DNA of 62,044 bases, the filler included, from Asterionella formosa (taxonomy: Eukaryota): the NCBI GenBank assembly GCA_002256025.1. It is 25 parts of 25 records of this genome, joined end to end, with 100 filler letters (N's around TTAATTAATTAA, not from the genome) between each part and the next. Parts side by side here need not be neighbours in the genome. Positions count along the whole stretch, not along the records: positions 42,309 to 44,690 come from NKIB01015341.1; 24 more parts are not named here. One strand, 5' to 3'. Of the stretch, positions 23,004 to 62,044 are shown piece by piece. The position numbers and the translations under genes were made by a program. Within the stretch, counting starts at the first letter, position 1. The number at the start of each line of letters is the position of its first letter. Under the pieces are notes generated by a model, which had not been told where the DNA came from, did no database searches, and worked only from the letters and a program-made list of their open reading frames with translations.

Positions 23004-23376
23004 CAGAACGACGCTTTGCTATTTAGTACATACAATAACGACATCATCAACAATACAATCATAAAAGAATTATGCTGATTACACTGATATTGAGAACGAA
23101 AATTGAAGTCGCTGATGGTACATTTTTTCATGTAAATCAGTGATGCACGATTTTTAAAATGACATGTTACAAGGAGCTTTGACATTTTGCAGTAGTTACA
23201 CGACAAAATAAGACTAAGACTACATCGATAACATGAATAATTGGAGCAACAGATGTTAAATAAGTTATTCATCTACTGAGAATTGATTGATTAAGAATTG
23301 GCAAGTTGTATAGTGGTGAAAGCTGACAAATGTGCTGAAGTATGCTGTCAAACCTTCTAGAAATACCCTAGATTTG

Positions 23377-24470
23377 ATGTTTGGCAGCCCCTTCATGCAG
23401 CAAAACCATTATGAAATAATGCTACACATAGCGATCCGCTGTTATTACCACCAGCACATTGTAGACATACAGGTAGATCAATGCTGGTTAATAGCTTTCC
23501 TTCTATAGTGACACATGCAGCCATGTACATATGAATTAAGGACTGTGCATGGTTGTCAACAAAGTTTCAGGAAAATATTCCTTAAAGTTGAGTCCATCAT
23601 TTGCTTAAACCTAAATAGTCTTTCAGTACTGTAACCCAAAATATTGCTTTAATCTAAATAGTCTTTCAGTACTTTAACCCAAAATAAACAATTTGGAAAG
23701 CAAATGGCTGTTGATCCAGACTACAATAGTAGTAAGACACCAAAGACGCTAGTTGTTCTTTGACAGGAAAGGGAGGTTGGGATTGGAGGACAAAAGCCAG
23801 CAAGGCTCTTTACAAGGGTTGAAAGGAGTAGACTGAAATTTATTTACTGCTGGTGCAAAATTCTGTGGGAGACAGAGGCAGCAATGCTAGTTTGTGCTTG
23901 CTATAATCCTGCAAACACATCAAGCAATAGACTGAATTTATGAGCCATATGGCCAAGACAAAACAGTGGCATACATACTCATGCATCTGAGACATTCGAT
24001 TGTTTCACTGCTGTGTGTTTAGATATTTTCATTGAAATTTAAAAATTTGCAATCTCTTTGGTATTTACATTGCTTGTTTACTTCCTCAATTGTTATTAAC
24101 TATTTTATCTTCTAGAAATTTTGCTTTTCATGTTTTCATGCATATTACTAGAAAATTGGGGAAGTACAACAAGGGATTTCATTCCATGACAAGACTATTA
24201 GAGGCGATGGTATGGTATTATCCACTCTATACTAGGCAGTATATATAGCGAGCTTTGTCCAACAAGGTGCTAGTGAACTACCAATGGGTACCAGGTACTC
24301 CGTTGACTACCAGTGCACAATATAGCTACGACGTTATGACTATATGTACCGGTACCCAGCAGTCTACCCGGTATACAAGTATATGCACATCGCGAGCTTT
24401 GTCAAAGGTGCTATACGTAGTATATAGGAAGTAAAGTACCAGTGCAGTACAAAACTACGACAAAATGTAT
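23377..24470 (+). repeat. ~1.1-kb dispersed non-coding repeat, copy 1
   Basis: Colinear with 42317-43385, with many substitutions and small indels. Confidence 0.9.
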
Positions 24471-24913
24471 GGCCAGAAAAGGTTGCACTGAGAGTTAGTT
24501 ATTTTATACTCGTAGTAACTAATACAAGTACCAGGTAGGTTATCTACTCCAATACTTCAATAATCTCTATGCTTCAATAATCTCTATGCTTCAATAATCT
24601 CTATGGGTGCATTTATTGCCCAAACTTATTCCATCATTAGCTACTCTTGGTACTTTCACCACCAGTACAGGTTGCCTGGCGAAAATATCATCATCTTTGA
24701 ACTCCAAGGCCCAATAAAGGTGAGACAGCAGTGGCATTAATGGAGCAGAAGAAGCTCCTTCATGCAGGAGTATGGCTAAGAGCATTGCCAACTAGCATCT
24801 GTGAGTGTTTCCANNNNNNNNNNNNNNNNNNNNNNNNNNNNNNNNNNNNNNNNNNNNTTAATTAATTAANNNNNNNNNNNNNNNNNNNNNNNNNNNNNNN
24901 NNNNNNNNNNNNN

Positions 24914-27304: not shown

Positions 27305-27404
27305 NNNNNNNNNNNNNNNNNNNNNNNNNNNNNNNNNNNNNNNNNNNNTTAATTAATTAANNNNNNNNNNNNNNNNNNNNNNNNNNNNNNNNNNNNNNNN
27401 NNNN

Positions 27405-28728
27405 ACATGACATCTGACAATGTATATGCTGCATCACCAACAAGATAAAAACCAGAATCAAATAATGCAGTTTTGTTGGGTAGAGCAGTTCTCTCAAATG
27501 CAACTTGATCACTGCATCGTCCAGGAGCAATCACCCCAAAAAATATAAATCTACTCTCAACATCACAGATAGCCTGAACATTGATACCATAAGTCATGTA
27601 ATGTCCAGAATAAAAAGCTCCTGGATTGTTTCCACAGTCACGTAGCGTGGGGCGACTAATTGTGGCTAAAAAACCATCAATAGCACCAACACACCCTCTG
27701 ATCAACCCTTCTGTGCTCTTTTGTTCAAAGGCTATAGCCAATTTCACCAAATCACTCCTTGTTTTAGGAAATATAATTTTCAGATAATCACAGTTAAGCA
27801 CGGCTTCAAGAAATAAATCTCGGCATCTATAGATTGAAGCTATGCTACATCCATAGGCATGACGAATGTCAATGTAGCTGCCTCTAGCCAACCATCGAAT
27901 GCCAATGGCCAGCACAATTTCTGGGTAAATGGGTGTAGCTGTACCGCACTTGGAGAAATTCCCAATGACATCACTCTCCAGCAAGTAAACCAACTTCTTA
28001 AAGGCTCGAAGGGACATTCTATAAGTCTTTTCAAATGCGTCCTCATGACACAGCTTCTTGACATGAGAATGCCATGACATTCTTTCATGCTCCCATTTCG
28101 CCTTCCTCTTTTTAACTTTCGTTTCAGCCTCCAGAGCCAGATGACAAAGGATAAAGAATTGATCATGGTCATCGTAATCAAAGAATTGATGGTTGTTTTC
28201 ATTATCAAAAAATTGATTACTGATGACATCATTACCATCATCATCATTGCCATCGTTGATATTCACGGCACCTTCTTCAGTCCAATGTTGATCCACTTGT
28301 TCGTTATTGTGCACTGACAATGATGACATGGTGCTGATTGCTTGTAAACTTGAAAGGGGATGATGGCAAGCGGAAGTGTAAGAAGAAGTGTATAGAGGAT
28401 CTTGCATGTCTGTGTTGACTCATGGCAAATCAAGAATTAAGCAGGTATGTCAGCTATATATTCCATACTGCTGCTACATAATACGCGTAGTTTTCCAACA
28501 TGGTTTTAGTAATGGAAAATTATCGAAATAATCTGGAGGGAAGCCTGGAGGGATATGCACATGATTGTAGCCAGCCCGTAAACGTTGAATTTTCGTGATA
28601 CTTTTTGGGTGATACAATTTTATTTTTATTTTTGTGGAGAATGGATTTTTTCAGTTTAAATCGAGTAGCCGTTACATGATACTTTTTCAAAAAAAATGAT
28701 ACCAAATCGAAAATGATAAGAACGGCCC
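27405..28728 (-). mobile_element. PIF/Harbinger transposon left end; DDE transposase ORF 28329 to contig edge
   Basis: YRMS...F, GIRWLARGSYIDI, GCVGAIDG, NVQAICD, PGRCSD, YLVGDAAY (HARBI1/DDE_Tnp_4 family). TIR GGGCCGTTCTTATCATTTT starts at 28728 after TAA. Confidence 0.92.
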
Positions 28729-33774: not shown

Positions 33775-36132
33775 TTTCTTGTGCGATTTCGAGACGAGAT
33801 TTGCATATATAACGACGAGAAATGTTTGTGCTTGGATTTCACTCTTTCTCGGTTGTCAGTTCTCTTGAAGGTTTTTCAGAAGTCTCTTGATTCGCTTTTC
33901 CAGTGCTGCTGTTGAGCACAGTAATCTCAAACAAAAACGATCAATTCTCCTACGTAGTATTCTCCAACTTCGCTCGGGAAACATTGATTTCAAATTGTCT
34001 CGCTAGCCACGACTGGTACATACCCATCAACACAAACACATGAATCAATTCTGCTCACTTAGAAGTAAACTATGAGCGTTGTTAGTACTGTAGGAGTCCT
34101 GGATGTGACTGGGCTTCAGCTTACTGATATTGTCAAGAAGCGAAGGCGGTTAATTTTACAAGTGTGCGTACCGGTTGATTCCCGGTAGGACATAAAGTAT
34201 TTTATACGCACCATCGCAAATAGTACAGATTTTCTATAAGTACCATACCGTACTCGTTGTTCGTCTCCGACATCCGTTTTGTCATAGCTATGTCTCCCTA
34301 CAATCAGACTGTCCACAGATCACGACCCCCAAAGCTGAATACAATAAGTAGGTATTTCATAGTGTATCTGGTACGACAACCGTAATATAGGTGCCAGGTA
34401 CCTGGTACCAGTAAAGGATGCAAATGTCAAGCAAAACTCACACGATTACATAAATGTGTTTGAATCATTACTGGTAGGTATTCTTTACTATTAAATTCAG
34501 GCTAAAGATGAAAAATAATTTGTACTCAAACAAAAAAAGGGGCTTAGTACCGGTACTTACATTTAACATACATTTCAATATATATTCTACTGTATAACAA
34601 CCCCGGGCGTTGTAGATGCTATATACGTGAACATGTCCGAATCACATTTCTATAAATAGTCGCGAAATATCCAGTACGATATACATAATGAGTTATTCGA
34701 CGAAGTTTTGTCGCTTCGAACAACAAAGAACAAAATGCAGTCAAAATTTGAGGCATCATCNNNNNNNNNNNNNNNNNNNNNNNNNNNNNNNNNNNNNNNN
34801 NNNNTTAATTAATTAANNNNNNNNNNNNNNNNNNNNNNNNNNNNNNNNNNNNNNNNNNNNAGATTAATGTAATGCATCAGAAGAATTCTCCAACGATGAT
34901 GCTGCCCTGCAAAAGTGTAAAACGTTAAGTAATAAGAAAATAATTTTTGTAGTATTAACGGAGTAAAAATAAACACGGTTTGGGGTGAAAATATATACAT
35001 GTACAGATAGAAAAATATGCACTGTAAGCCACCGCTATGCAATAATCTTAGTGACTTTGGAAAAATTATTTCTTCATGGCTAGATACACTGAATCAGAAC
35101 TGATTCCTTAATAGTATAGCAGAGAGCATTGTCTAACATAAGCTTTGTACTTGCGTCAAGTTTTGATCGTTGAATTACATAAATATTTTTAGTCGAAAGA
35201 TAGAGTAAAATAGCGGTGGCTTACAGTTTTTAAGTGGTACGAACGGATTCAATTCATAGCACACAAAATCTTTAATCGGAGTACCGGTATAGAGTGTCTG
35301 TGCATATATGTCGATCGTATTCTTAGGGTATATATACATCCAGCGACTAAGGGTGTTTATATATATATTTAGCGATTTCGACAAGGAATCTATGTACCTT
35401 TTCGCAAATTTCCACTGATTTAAATATTTCAAATGGAATAACGTCATTCAAAAATAGCTAATTAAATTCTTAATTCCAGAGAATTTTGGCAACCCTAAGC
35501 AATATTTTAAATATTGCCTAGGGATTCAAATGCAGCACGCTTACCGGTATATTAATTTCATCACGATCCAAGTGGTAGAGGCTACGCAAATTAATACTTT
35601 TTGTAGCATTAGGTACAAATTTGTACACACTCTAGGAATTACTATTGATGCCATCACAAAACTCGGGCGCACCGGTGCACCAAAAAATAGAAATTCTATT
35701 GATCATAGAAACTGTTTGAACCTACAACAATATATCTTTTAATGTTGCTAATCACGTTTTAGACTATGGCGAAAATGATGGTGAAATTGGTTTGCTCGCA
35801 GCGTTGGATTTTCGAAAAAGTTCCAGTGTCTTGTACTCCCCTCTAAGTAAAATCAGTCATGGCTGTGTACATTGAGGGGTACGAGACACCAGGTTTTACG
35901 GTATGGATATATTCATGACTATCATTTCTTCTAAACTGTAGATTGCTACAGCAGATATTTACATATACCCATATACGACTGTCCTACTCATGCAACACGA
36001 ATGATTCAAATTCAGATTGAGCGGTTGTTGATGTTTGCTGCCAGTGATGGTATACATACAAAAATACATCTATCGATATATATATATACATACAATATTC
36101 TACATGACGATAAATATTAGGTTCTCATTTTA

Positions 36133-37244
36133 GGGCCGTTCTTATCATTTTTTTTCGTGTAGCACGGAATTTGAATTTTTTTGAAAATGTATCAGCAACG
36201 GTAACTCGATTTGAATTGAATTTCATTCATTCCAAAAGTGTCACTGTATCACTAATTTGTGATCACATTGTATCATGGAGTAACATGGATCTTCAACGGC
36301 AACTGGCTGGCAAAGATCATGTGTATATCCTCCGGAATATAATGATGGTCTTGATATCAAACAACAACATAAAATATAATTACCGGGAAACTAAATATTA
36401 TATTAAAAACACACATTTGCATGAATCATGTCGTCGCCATTTGATTTACTTGATGATAATGATGATGACAGTAGTGATCTTGATTTCTTCTTCCTCTGTC
36501 ATTTAGCTAAGGAAGCAGAGGAAAAAGAACACTCATCCAAACGACAAAGGCGACGCTGTAAACGGCAGCTTCAGTCATCTGAACGACGACAACAACGAAG
36601 GCACAAGTGGCACCACGAAAGAATCTCCTGGCAATCACATGTCAAGAAACTGAATCACGAGATTGCTTTCGAGAAGACATACAGAATGTCACACAGAGCA
36701 TGCAAAAAACTCACCTCCATGCTGGAAATTCAGATTGCAGGGAATTATTCCAAATGTGGCACTTCTGAGCCCATAATTCCCGAAATTGTGGTAGCCATTG
36801 GTTTGCGATGGCTGGCTGGTGGCAGTTACATCGACATTCGTCATGCCTACGGTTGTAGCATTGCTTCACTTTATCGATGTCGTGATTTGTTCATTGATGC
36901 TGTACTAAACTGTGGAGAACTCGAAATTGTTTTTCCAAAAGAAAAAGAAGAATTTATCAAATTGGCTTCCAGCTTTGAATGCAAAAGCTCAGAGGGCATG
37001 ATGAGAGGATGTGTTGGTGCTATTGACGGCTTCCTAGCCACCATCAACCGCCCGACTATAGTTGAAAGTGGCAACAACCCTGGTTCATTCTTTTCCGGTC
37101 ACTACATGACTTATGGAATCAATGTCCAGGCTGTTTGTGATGCTGACTCAAGATTTATTTATTTTGGTGTAATTGCACCGGGAAAATGCAGTGACCAAGT
37201 AGCTTTTGAACGAACTTCCATTTTCGATCGAGTTGCAGCATTCA
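36133..37244 (+). mobile_element. PIF/Harbinger transposon left end; transposase ORF 36428 to contig edge
   Basis: TTA followed by the TIR GGGCCGTTCTTATCATTTT at 36133. The transposase is homologous to 27405-28329. Confidence 0.92.
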
Positions 37245-37344
37245 NNNNNNNNNNNNNNNNNNNNNNNNNNNNNNNNNNNNNNNNNNNNTTAATTAATTAA
37301 NNNNNNNNNNNNNNNNNNNNNNNNNNNNNNNNNNNNNNNNNNNN

Positions 37345-39530: not shown

Positions 39531-39626
39531 CCAGGGTGGTCCTGGTACCTGGTACCAGTACCATTATGAATCATTACCGTATACTTCATTGTCCTGGACC
39601 CCCCCTATGGTTGCTGGACCCCCCTG
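39531..39626. mobile_element. Candidate ~95-bp TA-flanked MITE
   Basis: TA-(C)CAGGGTGGTCCTG ... CTGGACCCCCCTG-TA, an 11/13 inverted match. Confidence 0.4.
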
Positions 39627-39826
39627 TACATTTTTCTCGAGGTGGAACCAAACACCCAATAATTTTCTTGTCATAGACAAAGTAACGTGCCATAATTCTT
39701 TTTGTCCTCGTAGGCACTAGTATGTANNNNNNNNNNNNNNNNNNNNNNNNNNNNNNNNNNNNNNNNNNNNTTAATTAATTAANNNNNNNNNNNNNNNNNN
39801 NNNNNNNNNNNNNNNNNNNNNNNNNN

Positions 39827-41931: not shown

Positions 41932-42316
41932 GATGATGATAGTTGGATGGATGGATGGATGGATGGATGATCAAAAGGAGTACTAATGGATGGATAGTGC
42001 CAATGAGAGAGAGAGAGTACCGGTAGATCGATTCAGTTGATGCAGTCAATCAGGGTTTAGAAATCATTTCTATTTTTATGTTCATATGATGATTATTTTT
42101 GCTTTTGCTGCCGCCACCTATCGTTCAGGACGATCTGCTAATCATGTGGTGTGTCAATGCTGTTGGTAATGGCTAATTATTGCAGGTATATAAATCACCA
42201 TTCTTTATNNNNNNNNNNNNNNNNNNNNNNNNNNNNNNNNNNNNNNNNNNNNTTAATTAATTAANNNNNNNNNNNNNNNNNNNNNNNNNNNNNNNNNNNN
42301 NNNNNNNNTATAGTTA

Positions 42317-43385
42317 ATGTTTGACAGCCCCTTCATGCAGCATACATGTGAGTGCTTAAAGGAGTACAGAACATCATTATGAAATAATGCTACACATAGT
42401 GATCCACTGTTATTACCAGCATATTGTTAACATAGTACCAGTAGACTAATGCTGGTAAATCTCTTTCCTTCTGTAGTGACACATGCAGTCATCTACATAT
42501 GAATTAAGGACTGTGCATGCTTGTCTACAAAGTTTAAGAAAAATATTGCTTAACGTTGTCTTGATTAAATTAGATTCCATCATTTGCTTAAACCTAAATA
42601 GTCTTTCAGTACTTTAACCCAAAGTAAAACGATTTGGAAAGTAAAATGGCTGTTGATCCAGTCTAGTACAATAGTAGTGGCTAAGACACCAAAGATGCTA
42701 GTTGTTCTTTGACAGGAATGGGAGGTTGGGATTGGAGGGCAAAAGCCAGAAAGGCTATTTACAAGGGTTGAAAGGAGTAGACTGAAATTTATTTACTGCT
42801 GGTGCTAAATTCTGTGGGAGACAGTTGCAATGCTAGTTTGTGCTGGTGATACTACTCCTGCAAACACAGCAATAGACCGAATTTATGAGCCATATGGCCA
42901 AGACCAAACAGTGACATACATACTCATGCATCTGATTAAAGATTGTTGCACTGGTGGGCATTCACTACTGTGTGTTTAGATAATTTCATTGAAATTTTGA
43001 AATTTGCAATGTCTTTAGTATTTACTTTGCTTGTTTAGTACCTCAATTGTTATTAACTATTTTATCTCCTAGTAGTTTCATGGTTTGCATGTTAACATGC
43101 ATATTACTAGAAAACTGGGGAGGTACAACAAGGGATTTCATTTCATGACAAAGCTATTAGAGGTGATGGTATTACCCAGTCTATACAAGGCAGTATATAT
43201 ACTGAGCTTTGTCGAAGGTGCTAGTTAACTACCACTGCACTACATAGCGACGACTTTATGTGCCAGGTACCTGGTACCAGGTACCCAGTCTAAACGAGTA
43301 CCGGTACATTGCTACATAGCTTTTTTGTCGAAGGTGCCGGTGCACAACAAAGCTACGACTATATGTACTGGTACCTGGTACCAGT
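42317..43385 (+). repeat. ~1.1-kb dispersed non-coding repeat, copy 2
   Basis: Colinear with 23377-24470. Confidence 0.9.
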
Positions 43386-44009
43386 CAAAAACTGCTTAAG
43401 ACCACTATGAACTGCTTAGACCACTATAACGGGGTAATCTTACACTATTTCAATTTTAGCAATACGACAATATTTACTATGAACAAGTCATTTGTTTCAC
43501 GCATCTACATATAGGATGTCTTAACGCCCGATCGATGTTGTGTTCCAGTTGGTGAGATACCGGTAAACGACTTCGAAAATGTTGAGTGAGGCACATCGGA
43601 AGAAAATAAAATTACCTCGTTTAGCTGGGCCGACATTTTATATTCATATACGATATCAAATAATGTTTTATACTCCAAATTAATATAGCTTCCTTTAACG
43701 CTTTTCTTGAGGTGGATTATAATTAGGGCGCGATTGTGTGCGACATCCCAATGTAAACATGCGCACTAGTTCACACCATAGCAATTTAGTGATTTTTTAC
43801 TGTCAACATAGATGCATCCTGAAATGCTCTCGAGACCATCACAATATACCACATTTTCATTTCTCCGGATCTTACAACTTAGTATAATGAACCGAAGAAG
43901 TACCAAACCTCGAGCAAGTACAGAGTTATTTGTAAGTCTCTAGATAAGGATTTAGTAAAGTTTGTTCTAAACAACAATGTCAGAGAAGTAGACGTTAGAA
44001 AGGCTAGCG

Positions 44010-44462
44010 GTGGAGGAGTTGTTTTACCAAGTGGCGCTATTGCTATCTAGATTATTAGTAGCAGACAAAGTTGACACAATAACGTGGCTAAAAAAAGACA
44101 TGGTGAAGTACCCTTTGAAGAAATTGAATCATGACAGCAAAGATCTAGTAGTAGGGGGTTTGAATTCAATAGTGCTATTGGATTGTTCCCCAGCAGAACG
44201 AATCGAAACTAGCAGTACACTTACCTTTGGAACCAGAGCCACCACTACTGCATCGTCCACTTTGACACCAGATACATGTAATGCAGATAAACACAGCAGT
44301 GAGAGAAACAATAATCTAGCCGATAGACCGGAACAGCATGAGACTCAACAAACACAACCTTCCGGTGAGAAGGGGGGGAACAAATACAAACGAAAAAAGT
44401 GTTCCATTGAGACCATGAAACTTGCTCCAGCACCACAAGCATGTGGTGGGCATCAATCTTGA
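44010..44462 (+). pseudogene. Degenerate kinesin motor C-terminal fragment
   Basis: KDLVVGGLNSIVLLDCSPAERIETSSTLTFGTRA resembles kinesin QDSLGGNSKT....CSP....ETLSTLxFGxRA. The rest of the motor is absent. Confidence 0.55.
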
Positions 44463-44790
44463 TAAGATGACTTGCCAGTTGGCGCTATTGGCGATCGCGC
44501 AAAATAAATGGTTCATGTGGTGGCTGGACGCTTTAAACTGGGAACGGAAGCACTGGACGATAAGACTAGGAGAAAAGAAGAGCAGAGTAGAAGGAGAGTG
44601 AGAAAGCGAATAAGAAAGTTATGGATTATAAAGCAACATTGAACGAGGTGCAAGCGATCAGAGCACTCAACAAACGGGCACACAAATGGANNNNNNNNNN
44701 NNNNNNNNNNNNNNNNNNNNNNNNNNNNNNNNNNTTAATTAATTAANNNNNNNNNNNNNNNNNNNNNNNNNNNNNNNNNNNNNNNNNNNN

Positions 44791-57186: not shown

Positions 57187-59565
57187 TTTGTCTGGATTCA
57201 TTCTGAGAACAATTCCTGGAAATGCTGGGGTTGATGCATCTCTTGGATACTTTCCAAAAATATCATGATAATCTTGGAGCATAACATGCACAAAATCCTC
57301 CATGCTCGACTCCAAGTAGCGTCCCACTTTATCTTGGCCCCAATCGTACCACACTCCCAAATGCTTCTTCAAAGGGCCAAGCTCCTTAATTGTGAAGTGT
57401 TTCTTGATTTCATTTTTGAACCATTTAATATCATTTGGCTTTCCAGCAATTGCACAATCATCGACATGTGTGGCAATTATTAGGATTAGTGCATTGTTTT
57501 CCTTGATGAAGAATACACATGGATCGACCTTGCTCTGCCTCAATCCAACTTTGGTTAAGTTTTGAACCATCTTCTTGAAGAATTGTAGCGCTGCTTGAAC
57601 TGTGCCATACGTGGCCTTCTCCAACTTAATGCATTTGTTTTTCATTGTTTCTTGTGTTTCGAAACCAAAGTCTAAAACCCCATCTGGCCATTCAATATAG
57701 ATTTGCTCTTCCATGTCTCCTTCAAGAAAAGCAGCTTCAACATCAATGATTTCACAAACCCATCGTATTTCTTCAGACTTATCCCATTTGTATAACGAGA
57801 GAGCGAATATCATACGCATTGAAGCATCTTTTGCAACTGGAGCAAATGAATCAGTGAAATCCAGTCCTGGGATCTGAACGTAGCCTTTCACTATAATACG
57901 TCCTTTGTATCGAATACTTTTATCCTGCTCGGATTTCTTCTTGAATACCCAGCGTGTGCCTAAGGGTTTTCTGCCCTTGAGATTGTCACGAGGAACCATT
58001 TTCCAAACATTTCGCTTGTAGAAATTGTTGATTTCATTTTTAATAGCAACGGTCCACTGCTTGCTCTCGTCTCCTTTCATAGCCTCCTTGTAATGCTTTG
58101 GCTCCCCGGGATCCGAAGCAAGCGTTGTAGAATATGCATAGAACCTCTCTACTCCTTCTTCACTTTGAAATAGTTCATCATCATCCTGATAGGCCGCTTC
58201 AGAATAATCTATTTCTTCAATTGATCCTTTGTCCTTGTCATCTAGTTGTAAGCTGCGCCGAGCACTGCGTTTGCCAGTAACTTCTTTCCAACCATCAAGG
58301 CGTTTCAATTCTCGTTCCAATTTTGCTTTCTTCTAAGCATCTTTGTTGATCTCATCACCTAACTTCCCCACTGCTTCGGATAGCTGAAATCTTGTTTGTT
58401 TCACAACTGGAACAGGTGTTTCCAAATCAATATCCTGCTGGATAGGTGGCACAACAGGAAGAACATCTTCGTCCTGCTTTGCATCATCAATTGGAATAAC
58501 AACCACTTCTGTGTCCCCTTCCACATTGAAATCCCTCAAACCTGCGATTGGACTTGTTTGGCCATGCCAATCAGCCCAGCGAATGTTTCGACTATTTAAA
58601 ATCTTTCTTGTCTGAGGGTTAAACATTCGGTAAGTGTCTCCAGCATGATCATGAGAATAACCAACCATCACACATTTAATGGCCTTTTCTTCGAGTTTAT
58701 TTGTTTTCTTAGCACCAATTTTCACCCATCCGATCCTGCCAAAATGCATTAGATGATCGTAAATCATTGGAACCTTTTTGTAAAACTTCTCATCTGCACT
58801 TTTTACATCATTAGATGTGGCCACAATGTTCGTGATTCGTGTGTTGGTGTTGATGGCCTCTGCCCAAAGTAAACCTTGAAATTCATCATTAAATTTTGCA
58901 GCAAACATTGCTGCACATGCTCGTTGACGAATGGTTACAAACTTTCGCTCCACAATTCCATTCTGTTGTGGTGTGTAGGGTGCCGTAAATTCGATTTGAA
59001 TATTGAATTTCTCGCATAGTTTTGTCAAACCTGAGACGTTTTCACCCGCATTGTCACAACGGAGAAACTTGGTAACATACTCAGCCGTTTTGAGTTTAGT
59101 CAACAAATCTTCAATCTTTGAAGCAAGCTGTGACTTCTTCTTAACAAAGAAACTCCAAGATTTTCCGGTGTAATCATCAACAACAAGGATCCAATAGTCA
59201 TTTCCTAAAATCGACTTTTTATATGGACCGCTGATATCTGTGCACAAACGTTCGCCCGGTTGAGTAGCCTTGCTCATAGTGATTTTAGGAACACTTTTTG
59301 CTTTAGCCTTAGCTAGCGCACATCCTTCACATGTATACATCACACCTGTCATTTTGATACCAAGCGATTTCATAGTAGCCCGCAATGCCGCTTCCCCAAT
59401 ATGTCCGTATTTAGCGTGAGCTTCATTAATGTCCATACTGGTCAATTTCGTTGTGATGACCTCTGCAGATAAGATATCACTCCCACCTGGGTAAATTCCA
59501 CGAGTTCCTTGGAAATAGTACAAAACATCTGAATGATCACGTTTGAAATCTAGCGTCTCAGTTTT
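57187..59565 (-). mobile_element. Ty1/Copia pol (integrase-RT), copy A, in-frame TAG at 58333-58335
   Basis: HAKYGH...CEGC, CTDISGP, RCDNAGE, QNGIVER. RT motifs RWVFKKK, DVEAAFL, HVDD. Confidence 0.97.
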
Positions 59566-59665
59566 NNNNNNNNNNNNNNNNNNNNNNNNNNNNNNNNNNN
59601 NNNNNNNNNTTAATTAATTAANNNNNNNNNNNNNNNNNNNNNNNNNNNNNNNNNNNNNNNNNNNN

Positions 59666-62044
59666 AAAACTGAGACGCTAGATTTCAAACGTGATCATTC
59701 AGATGTTTTGTACTATTTCCAAGGAACTCATGGAATTTACCCAGGTGGGAGTGATATCTTATCTGCAGAGGTCATCACAACAAAATTGACCAGTATGGAC
59801 ATTAATGAAGCTCACGCCAAATACGGACATATTGGGGAAGCAGCATTGCGGGCTACTATGAAATCGCTTGGTATCAAAATGACAGGTGTGATGTATACAT
59901 GTGAAGGATGTGCGCTAGCTAAGGCTAAAGCAAAAAGTGTTCCTAAAATCACTATGAGCAAGGCTACTCAACCGGGCGAACGTTTGTGCACAGATATCAG
60001 CGGTCCATATAAAAAGTCGATTTTAGGAAATGACTATTGGATCCTTGTTGTTGATGATTACACCGGAAAATCTTGGAGTTTCTTTGTTAGGAAGAAGTCA
60101 CAGCTTGCTTCAAAGATTGAAGATTTGTTGACTAAACTCAAAAAGGCTGAGTATGTTACCAAGTTTCTCCGTTGTGACAATGCGGGTGAAAACGTCTCAG
60201 GTTTGACAAAACTATGCGACAAATTCAATATTCAAATCGAATTTACGGCACCCTACACACCACAACAGAATGGAATTGTTGAGCGAAAGTTTGTAACCAT
60301 TTGTCAACGAGCATGTGCAGTAATGTTTGCTGCAAAATTTAATGATGAATTTCACGGTTTACTTTGGGCAGAGGCCATCAACACCAACACACGAATCACG
60401 AACATTGTGGCCACATCTAATGATGTAAAATGTGCAGATGAGAAGTTTTACAAAAAGGTTCCAATGATTTACGATCATCTAATGCATTTTGGCAGGATCG
60501 GATGGGTGAAAATTGGTGCTAAGAAAACAAATAAACTCGAAGAAAAGGCCATTAAATGTGTGATGGTTGGTTATTCTCATGATCATGCTGGAGACACTTT
60601 CCAAATGTTTAACCCTCAGACAAGAAAGATTTTAAATAGTCGAAACATTTGCTGGGCTGATTGGCATGGCCAAACAAGTCCAATCGCAGGTTTGAGGGAT
60701 TTAATTGTGGAAGGGGACACAGAAGTGGTTGTTATTCCAATTGATGATGAAAAGCAGGACGAAGATGTTCTTCCTGTTGTGCCACCTATCTAGCAGGATA
60801 TTGATTTGGAAACACCTGTTCCAGTTGTGAAACAAACAAGATTTCAGCTATCTGAAGCAGTGGGAAAATTAGGTGATGAGATCAACAAAGATGCTTCGAA
60901 GAAAGCAAAATTGGAACGAGAATTGAAACGCCTTGATGGTTGGAAAGAAGTTACTGGCAAACGCAGTGCTCGGCGCAACTTACAACTAGATGACAAGGAC
61001 AAAGGATCAATTGAAGAAATAGATTTTTCTGAAGCGGCCTATCAAGATGATGATGAACTATTTCAAAGTGAAGAAGGAGTAGAGAGGTTCTATGCATATT
61101 CTACAACGCTTGCTTCCGATCCTGGGGAGCCAAAGCATTACAAGGAGGCTATGAAAGGAGACGAGAGCAAGCAGTGGACCGTTGCTATTAAAAATGAAAT
61201 CAACAATTTCTACAAGCGAAATGTTTGGAAAATGGTTCCTCGTGACAATCTCAAGGGCAGAAAACCCTTAGGCACACGCTGGGTATTCAAGAAGAAATCC
61301 GAGCAGGATAAAAGTATTCGATACAAAGGATGTGTTGTAGTGAAAGGCTACGTTCAGATCCCAGGACTGGATTTCACTGATTCATTTGCTCCAGTTGCAA
61401 CAGATGCTTCAATGCGTATGATATTCGCTCTCTCGTTCTACAAATGGGATAAGTCTGAAGAAATACGATGGGTTTGTGAAATCATTGATGTTGAAGCTGC
61501 TTTTCTTGAAGGAGACATGGAAGAGCAAATCTATATTGAATGGCCAGATGGGGTTTTAGACTTTGGTTTCGAAACACAAGAAACAATGAAAAACAAATGC
61601 AATAAGTTGGAGAAGGCCATGTATGGCACAGTTCAAGCAGCGCTACAATTTTTCAAGAAGATGGTTCAAAACTTAACGAAAGTTGGATTGAGGCAGAGCA
61701 AGGTCGATCCATGTGTATTCTTCATCAAGGAAAACAATGCACTAATCCTAATAAGTGCCACACATGTCGATGATTGTGCAATTGCTGGAAAGCCAAATGA
61801 TATTAAATGGTTCAAAAATGAAATCAAGAAACACTTCACAATTAAGGAGCTTGGCCCTTTGAAGAAGCATTTGGGAGTGTGGTACGATTGGGGCCAAGAT
61901 AAAGTGGGACGCTACTTAGAGTCGAGCATGGAGGATTTTGTGCATGTTATGCTCCAAGATTATCATGATATTTTTGGAAAGTATCCAAGAGATGCATCAA
62001 CCCCAGCATTTCCAGGAATTGTTCTCAGAATGAATCCAGACAAA
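59666..62044 (+). mobile_element. Ty1/Copia pol (integrase-RT), copy B, in-frame TAG at 60791-60793
   Basis: Reverse complement of 57187-59565 with identical endpoints and scattered SNPs. The RT frame is open to the window end. Confidence 0.97.

Follow-up and report, generated by a model that had tools for sequence, protein, structure and literature searches.

The window analysed here, a stretch of 62,044 nucleotides from the Asterionella formosa assembly GCA_002256025.1, comprises 25 unlinked contigs, each of ~2.4 kb, joined by N-linkers: TTAATTAATTAA flanked by N-runs recurs every ~2.5 kb (for example at 42209–42308) as an artificial linker, across which adjacency is meaningless. The interval of primary interest, 43251–43385, covers the end of a partial copy of a non-coding repeat, ~2.25 kb long when whole, and the first bases of a transposable element that starts four bases before the interval ends (Table 1). 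The last TA of the chain in subrepeat 2 (43379–43380) is the target-site duplication of this element, which derives by internal loss from a 3.5-kb autonomous element on contig G000:C14068 (a deletion derivative). The diverged second copy of the host repeat lies on a different contig. Most copies display a fixed end, GTTCGTAR followed by TA (window 24490–24510; loci L004–L016, L030 and L155), which in L030 is found on both sides. Elsewhere in the window, two adjacent contigs at 57187–62044 carry the same pol region in inverted orientation at 98% identity, a region labelled copia-like by reading the translation, and two related frames at 27349–28419 and 36425–37300 share 73% DNA identity; we take these frames to resemble PIF/Harbinger transposases.

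Table 1. Features of the window; positions count along the whole stretch.
Feature	Position	Strand	Remarks
Diverged copy 1 of the host repeat	23370..24505	+	Deepest branch in the midpoint-rooted tree; 24343-24373 is subrepeat 2
TACCGGTA at a three-state TA	35282..35289	+	2.46-kb CCGTA-ended DD35D element in paralogue L051, empty in paralogue L159
End of a CCGTAAAACC-family element with TA	35882..35903	-	TIR starts at 35901 on the - strand
TA and end of a CCGTATAC-family element (~650-bp MITE)	39575..39726	+	TIR from 39577; contig end cuts the element
Non-coding multi-copy repeat, partial copy hosting scars (copy 2)	42320..43380	+	179 candidates, 40 scored; three ~95-bp subrepeats in the 3' part
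Chain CCAGG-TA-CCTGG-TA-CCAGG-TA, subrepeat 1	43263..43283	+	Third unit gained
TACCGGTA in subrepeat 1	43299..43306	+	Common to close copies, older event
TA-CTGG-TA-CCTGG-TA, subrepeat 2	43366..43380	+	Earlier-branching copies have CCGG in place of CTGG (C>T at CpG)
CCA-ended element, end and body	43381..44690	+	26-bp TIR starting CCAGTC; contig end cuts the element
TACCGGTA inside the CCAGT element	43558..43565	+	Missing from four sister sequences

A preliminary description of this DNA had drawn attention to a profusion of short TA-bounded motifs and had read them as stacked excision footprints of TA-targeting transposons, an interpretation that the present analysis supports. Every motif string it quoted is found where it was reported, and their density is far above chance. 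With both strands counted, the window contains 50 copies of TACCGGTA, against 0.9–3.4 expected, and 21 of TACCWGGTA, against 0.5–0.8. In a 394.5-kb sample of seven long contigs, the two words occur 154 and 169 times, respectively, versus 3.7 expected for each, an excess of 42-fold and 46-fold. Their joint density is ~0.8 per kb, no TA-bounded word other than (TAC)n is more over-represented, and extrapolation from the sample to the 68.4-Mb assembly (15,436 contigs) gives ~56,000 sites. The same sample harbours lesser cores: CCAG/CTGG (91, 5.6-fold), CCG/CGG (61, 2-fold), CCAGGG/CCCTGG (19) and CCSGG (17). No enrichment was detected in it for the 3-nt cores CCA/TGG (62 versus 74) or for CCATGG and CATG.

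The motifs shun coding DNA: only 11 of the 323 in the sample are located inside long open frames, which contain 5,279 of the 24,076 TA sites (22%). Confinement to non-coding DNA would suit palindromes selected as cis-regulatory or structural sites, as has been suggested for TACATGTA and GTACCGGTA in oomycete promoters, where GTACCGGTA/ATACCGGTAT and TACATGTA are candidate binding sites (PMC3520976, PMC10031896). Such an origin is very improbable here, as the depletion in frames is what selection against 6–7-bp insertions is expected to produce, and the motifs include private insertions inside transposon copies, decay by CpG transition and have flanks that track transposon target preferences, as detailed below. 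Some motif copies may have acquired a secondary regulatory use.

Evidence that the motifs are gained at TA sites stems from a catalogue of indels. All-against-all alignment of 210 loci and the window yielded 730 distinct indels of 2–30 bp, after removal of pairs below 80% identity or 120 bp and of indels close to another gap or flanked by three or more mismatches, a filter that discards many events within chains. When tandem duplications are excluded, 26 of 42 six-base indels consist of a core plus TA following a TA. The core is CCGG in 14 of these events, 12 of which have no other CCGG within 30 nt. Core-plus-TA events make up 9 of 23 seven-base indels; only three are CCWGG, and all three have a local copy of the core. 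Four insertions carry the core CCAG. Other TA-linked insertion cores are a single C/G (37 events), GC (12) and CTAG (3), as in L059, L077 and L100; TAGCTA is enriched 2.3-fold and TACTAGTA 5.4-fold. No donor for C/G and GC, the commonest TA-linked indel cores, or for CTAG was found among resident elements; the host repeat is a possible source of C/G or CTAG.

The history of the host repeat tells the direction of change. In a midpoint-rooted tree of 36 copies, built from the upstream 780 bp, a CCGGTA was gained on the stem of a clade of 20 copies (support 100/99); the four scored copies that fall outside this clade lack it. In subrepeat 1, 12 scored copies have two units at one particular TA, where separate lineages have added CCAGG, CCCTGG, CCGG or CTGG: CCGG was added in L011 and CTGG in L020, the sister of each being without the insertion. 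In L026 a CCAGT element occupies a TA neighbouring the chain at 43263–43283. The tree displays gains rather than losses, which speaks against ancestral motifs later deleted, a counter-explanation that the preliminary description had put forward against itself. Its two other refuting conditions, cores explained by slippage or local templates and a genome devoid of matching TA-targeting elements, did not overturn the idea either.

Independent gain at TA is accordingly upheld by the many-copy indels and the tree, and mostly not by the pairs of sequences originally quoted for it. The comparison of 24343–24357 with 43263–43283 set subrepeat 2 of copy 1 against subrepeat 1 of copy 2 and is non-orthologous: the true orthologue of 24343–24357 is 43360–43380. 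The chain at 43263–43283 does contain a true gain, its third unit, although it had been compared with the wrong subrepeat. A supposed gain in copy 1, GTCTA-CCCGGTA at 24362–24373, is a substitution, as CCCGG at 24365 is CCCTG in other copies; copy 2 has no counterpart because the transposon breaks the repeat at 43381. The GGTA-TGGTA near 24209, taken for a footprint, is a simple 5-bp tandem duplication, and the pair 23466/42431, cited as a further insertion difference, aligns free of gaps. Finally, the unit GAGTA-CCGGTA at 43296–43306, described as absent from copy 1, is shared by close copies and so is not private to copy 2.

The words also decay. CG methylation is present in diatoms, and CpG deamination would convert CCGG into CTGG or CCAG: in subrepeat 2 the CCGG of earlier branches has become CTGG in the crown clade through a CpG transition, and such transitions represent 20 of the 61 single substitutions at aligned copies of TACCGGTA. 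In the 394.5-kb sample the flanks of CCAG/CTGG resemble those of CCGG more than those of CCWGG. These cores, formerly attributed to trimming (CCA+G or C+TGG), are largely products of CpG decay of CCGG; this is the main source and not the sole one, because the four CCAG-core insertions occur.

Two groups of resident transposons bear ends that match the dominant cores. The first consists of two CCGTA-ended families, with 284 and 89 exact ends genome-wide and none in reversed-pattern controls; their CCG...CGG termini correspond to the 'related' ends mentioned in the preliminary description. The families include ~650-bp MITEs and 2.3–2.5-kb elements that encode transposases with a DDE_1 domain (PF03184, E 1e-21), a D35D spacing read in the translation of L051 and a weak, sub-threshold BrkDBD match. 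The DDE_1 domain, the DDD triad, short TIRs and TA duplication are traits of the pogo superfamily, and 64 of 66 examined CCG ends follow TA. The ends of Tc2 of C. elegans are likewise CCGTA. The DD35D elements harbour a second, convergent frame of ~145 aa, conserved between both families (L051:781–1215, L056:2317–2751, L160:3813–4310) and without a match in Pfam. A third TA-flanked pogo family has CAGTG ends and DDE_1 (L032, which is G000:C10314, and L159); the scars expected from it, CAG/CTG and CATG, are not clearly enriched (1.2- and 1.1-fold).

The second group carries the CCA...TGG ends that the preliminary description had predicted next to TA; like the first, it has transposases of the ITm type. 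There are 234 exact CCAGT and 420 exact CCACY ends genome-wide, against none in reversed-pattern controls, and they fall into CCAGT, CCACT and CCACC subfamilies; all 65 examined ends follow TA. Behind its CCAGT TIR the 3.5-kb element of G000:C14068 maintains an intact frame of 779 aa. Searches of Pfam and of PDB sequences returned no match for this protein. It has 285 homologues, two of which are named and come from the diatom Fragilaria crotonensis; D211, D360 and D398 are kept in 83–84 of 84 aligned homologues and the D37D spacing in 80. The best fold matches of its structural model (pLDDT 92) are Mos1, SETMAR and Sleeping Beauty (Z 12.8, rmsd 3.3 over 195 residues), the next family scoring 8.9, and its Atlas neighbours are DDE_1 clusters at 0.91–0.96. 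An hhalign comparison with five DD35D fragments aligned the three aspartates with a score that was not significant. The family thus combines an RNase H-like DDD transposase of Tc1/mariner fold with TIRs and TA duplication, the traits of ITm elements.

The spacing of the DD37D triad agrees with maT, of the Tc1 family, but the Atlas neighbours are DDE_1 and a search of the genome with the PF13358 profile matched none of 16 candidates, revealing no classical Tc1/mariner donor. The DD37D protein probably functions in the manner of a pogo transposase, as a putative member of one of these families. Donors appear to be pogo-like and not Tc1/mariner proper, as had first been proposed. A CCGG/CCGA-ended DD37D subfamily, which metagenomes do contain, was not found in this genome with one pattern, its 6 matches comparing with 4 in the control. 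Shorter element ends with a longer target duplication of 4 or 6 bp (GTAC, GGTACC) were considered and rejected, as the flanks outside TA are unequal in the full elements L022, L091, L099 and L147.

The two groups differ in the sites they occupy, and the scars differ in the same way. A G precedes the TA at 59 of 65 CCA ends versus 13 of 64 CCG ends, the background being 26%; CCAGT ends follow GG-TA in 39 of 51 cases, against 7% of TA sites, and a T stands at -3 in 36 of 65 CCA ends. Flanks of isolated units have G in 109 of 154 instances for CCWGG and in 65 of 244 for CCGG (p 4e-18). In this respect no difference separates the flanks of CCGG from the ends of CCG elements (p 0.34), and G is somewhat less frequent at isolated CCWGG flanks than at CCAGT element ends (p 0.001). 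These counts indicate that each scar retains the target context of its donor family, and CCGG, once thought to arise from trimmed CCA ends, most likely comes from the CCG-ended families.

At two TA sites three states were found among paralogues. Site 43379 holds the element in the window, is empty in 12 loci and bears an extra CCAGGTA in L005 and L023. The second site, at 35282 (Table 1), has flanks that are 77–89% identical among paralogues. These empty, filled and scarred sets are paralogues, not alleles; public contigs compared with a 10-kb stretch gave indel rows that were mostly repeats and no usable strain polymorphism.

Taken together, the observations make it very probable that two groups of pogo-like cut-and-paste transposons, both targeting TA, left TACCGGTA and TACCWGGTA behind as excision footprints, which have built up in neutral DNA. 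Insertion would duplicate TA, and excision would leave short 3' overhangs of the terminal bases of the element that end-joining seals; both steps are established for ITm elements, and the second is inferred here. The CCG...CGG ends of DD35D elements would give rise to TA-CCGG-TA, plausibly because the central CG lets the overhangs anneal, with CCG/CGG and CCSGG as minor products. The CCA...TGG ends of DD37D elements would generate TA-CC(A/T)GG-TA, that is CCA+GG or CC+TGG. Under a rule of 3-nt removal such as that of Sleeping Beauty, CCA overhangs would be unable to pair, whereas CCG overhangs would pair through CG. Mos1 leaves 3-nt scars from its CCA ends. The scarcity of CCA/TGG scars here and the skew between CCAGGG/CCCTGG and CCCAGG/CCTGGG (19 versus 1 in the 394.5-kb sample) hint at a 4-nt cut, and so do the CCGT/ACGG cores, 19 versus 5 in the same sample. 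Against a 4-nt overhang, CCACGG/CCGTGG occurs once, even though CCAC ends outnumber CCAG ends. Excision itself, the length of the overhang and the feedback dynamics considered below are conclusions that we infer from sequence.

The footprint interpretation carries costs. The surviving donors amount to ~510 counted end pairs, a lower bound as only exact ends in a fragmented assembly are included, so that each surviving element would have to stand for ~100 scars. Moreover, clean excisions were a small minority in rice, 8 of 94 (PMC4423477), and scars as uniform as these therefore need unusually tidy repair. Also counting against it are the 3-nt cores at background level, the local core copies beside all three CCWGG insertions, the lower G content of isolated CCWGG flanks and the common C/G and GC cores, for which no donor was found. 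The first cost would be eased if the cores derived from incomplete, transposase-dependent events, such as 'self-inflicted wounds' from open-and-shut cleavage of a single end, gap repair that is broken off, or insertion of short pieces of element ends. Damage at element ends has been described for Hsmar1 and Tdr1 (PMC5224488), and 22 of 65 CCA ends adjoin CCWGG-type units. This origin is nonetheless unlikely, for the cores join bases of both ends (CC...GG) and mostly lie far from elements, 372 of the 451 chains in the 394.5-kb sample consisting of single units, while CCG-ended elements have no adjoining units at all (0 of 64). Deletion of whole elements between short end repeats, independently of transposase, could also produce CCGG through the CG common to CCG and CGG, and CCTGG or CCAGG through the C/G common to CCAG and CTGG. 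Equally possible products of such deletions, CCACTGG, CCAGTGG and CCGTACGG, are all absent from the 394.5 kb, and the larger subfamily, with CCAC ends, would be unable to yield CCAGG; we give this route hardly any weight.

Stacking of the scars had been ascribed to the new TA that each event creates. The chains are real, but the fresh TA explains less than the GG-TA-CC preference of a single family. Units belong to chains in 92 of 169 cases for CCWGG versus 32 of 154 for CCGG (394.5-kb sample). A CCWGG-type unit adjoins 22 of 65 CCA ends, 0 of 64 CCG ends and 0.8% of TA sites, and of 316 GGTACC sites 224 are in contact with a unit. Scarring of GGTACC by CCWGG would create two GGTACC targets and could thereby account for the stacking: insertion and excision at the site preferred by the DD37D family would leave GG-TA-CCWGG-TA-CC, to which the family may return repeatedly, drawing a fresh A or T each round. 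CCG-ended elements, which have no preference for G, would leave mostly single scars. CCA-ended elements insert directly against each other's ends as well (L144:3789, L063, L298), because an element end followed by TA and CC re-creates GGTACC.

A count of CCWGG dimers allows stacking to be set against slippage. Genome-wide there are 5,576 such dimers, with 2 in the reversed control and ~5,200 predicted from the 30 in the sample: 3,074 identical (by subtraction), 1,500 CCTGG-CCAGG and 1,002 CCAGG-CCTGG, copies carried by repeats included. The excess of CCTGG-CCAGG fits the frequent T at -3 of CCA ends. Slippage or templated repair at the GGTACC palindrome would turn the chains into a true 7-bp microsatellite with no involvement of transposons. 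It would account for GG-TA-CCWGG-TA-CC as GGTACC+W+GGTACC, for the local copies beside the three CCWGG indels, and for long pure runs, such as the ~8 CCTGGTA units near a CCAGT element end in L112:1650–1715, a run probably extended by slippage. Identical dimers should reach 50% under independent draws and include nearly all dimers under slippage; they stand at 55%, and slippage therefore probably explains roughly one dimer in ten. The 2,502 heterodimers (45%) are at odds with the identical neighbours of a slippage microsatellite. Just 9 of the 77 CCWGG units that stand alone are bounded by GG...CC on both sides, the CCGG gains mostly arose without a template, the skew towards CCAGGG departs from the predicted symmetry, and the agreement between donor ends and cores would have no explanation. 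As the main source slippage is largely refuted, and we rate it as quite improbable; alongside excision, it would add a minority of identical neighbours.

The excision reading invites a wider proposal, towards which the balance tips only slightly. The scar of the DD37D family would regenerate and double its own GG-TA-CC target, so that most GGTACC landing sites would be written by the family itself; the loop would steer insertions into scarred, neutral DNA and build pseudo-microsatellites without slippage, and the same general mechanism would lie behind TA-bounded palindromes elsewhere, for example TACATGTA and GTACCGGTA in oomycetes. This feedback would offer a slippage-free route to tandem repeats and may limit harm to the host.

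Relatives of the DD37D protein in metagenomes suggest that the scar word changes with the element end. Among 79 loci obtained from the best 80 of 349, ends following TA are CCAG, CCAC, CCGG or CCGA. The 24 CCA-ended loci contain 9 CCWGG and no CCGG, and the 8 CCG-ended loci contain 17 CCGG and no CCWGG, two of the 17 being element ends and many lying in a coding low-complexity tract; 47 of the 79 loci have no classable end. The loci stem from few samples, and the correspondence is only suggestive. Stacks of TACCGGTA, TACCGTA and TACGGTA lie beside those relatives that end in CCGG or CCGA (L257, L260, L269, L271, L282, L283, L286).

Knowledge of footprints comes from single loci and from assays; in this genome they appear to be a leading contributor of small insertions. 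The scars seem to record past transposition ~100-fold beyond the surviving copies, in words particular to each family that lend themselves to counting and dating. Mostly open-access papers, represented by main texts of the top-ranked matches, contain no report of genome-wide footprint words, of a CCA-ended DD37D family or of feedback between target and scar; the supplements of PMC7386202 and PMC7325037 may list the family. The word 'footprint' does not occur in the main text of a review of repeats derived from transposable elements (PMC9659126).

Among known systems, the footprints of Tc1/mariner elements are the closest parallel. Sleeping Beauty has three nucleotides removed and leaves cag/ctg (PMC5224488), Tc1 leaves taCATGta, as cited in PMC3520976, and footprints measure 0–3 bp for ZB (PMC7913693) and 0–4 bp for Passer (PMC9976928). 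As in these cases, a TA duplication encloses terminal bases of the element and both orientations are equally likely. In contrast, the dominant cores here are 4 and 5 nt long, the latter exceeding the footprints of ZB and Passer, and occur at ~0.8 per kb. A counterpart to stacking has been described in intron 4 of the Triticeae beta-amylase gene, where several different Stowaway footprints share one TA and an earlier footprint later received a new element (PMC1925063): that case concerns a single plant locus, whereas thousands of chains occur here, with a sequence-level reason in the GGTACC preference.

As regards the donors, Passer has been reported from stramenopiles (PMC7386202), and the CCGTA-ended families resemble pogo/Passer/Fot-like DD35D elements through DDE_1, D35D, the weak BrkDBD match, TIRs shorter than 40 bp and TA duplication. 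The CCA-ended family stands apart by its D37D spacing, its 779-aa frame without a Pfam match and its strong preference for GG-TA-CC. The oomycete motifs, TACATGTA (motif-1) and GTACCGGTA (motif-9, a promoter motif of Seidl et al. according to PMC10031896), are comparable in being abundant TA-bounded palindromes in stramenopile non-coding DNA, and one word is identical. For Phytophthora, Seidl et al. discounted a footprint origin of TACATGTA on the grounds of abundance and conservation (PMC3520976). The present finding reopens that call, which judged the motif too abundant for a footprint, and motif-discovery studies in stramenopiles may report scars as promoter elements. In A. formosa abundance is accompanied by insertion polymorphism and by matching donors.
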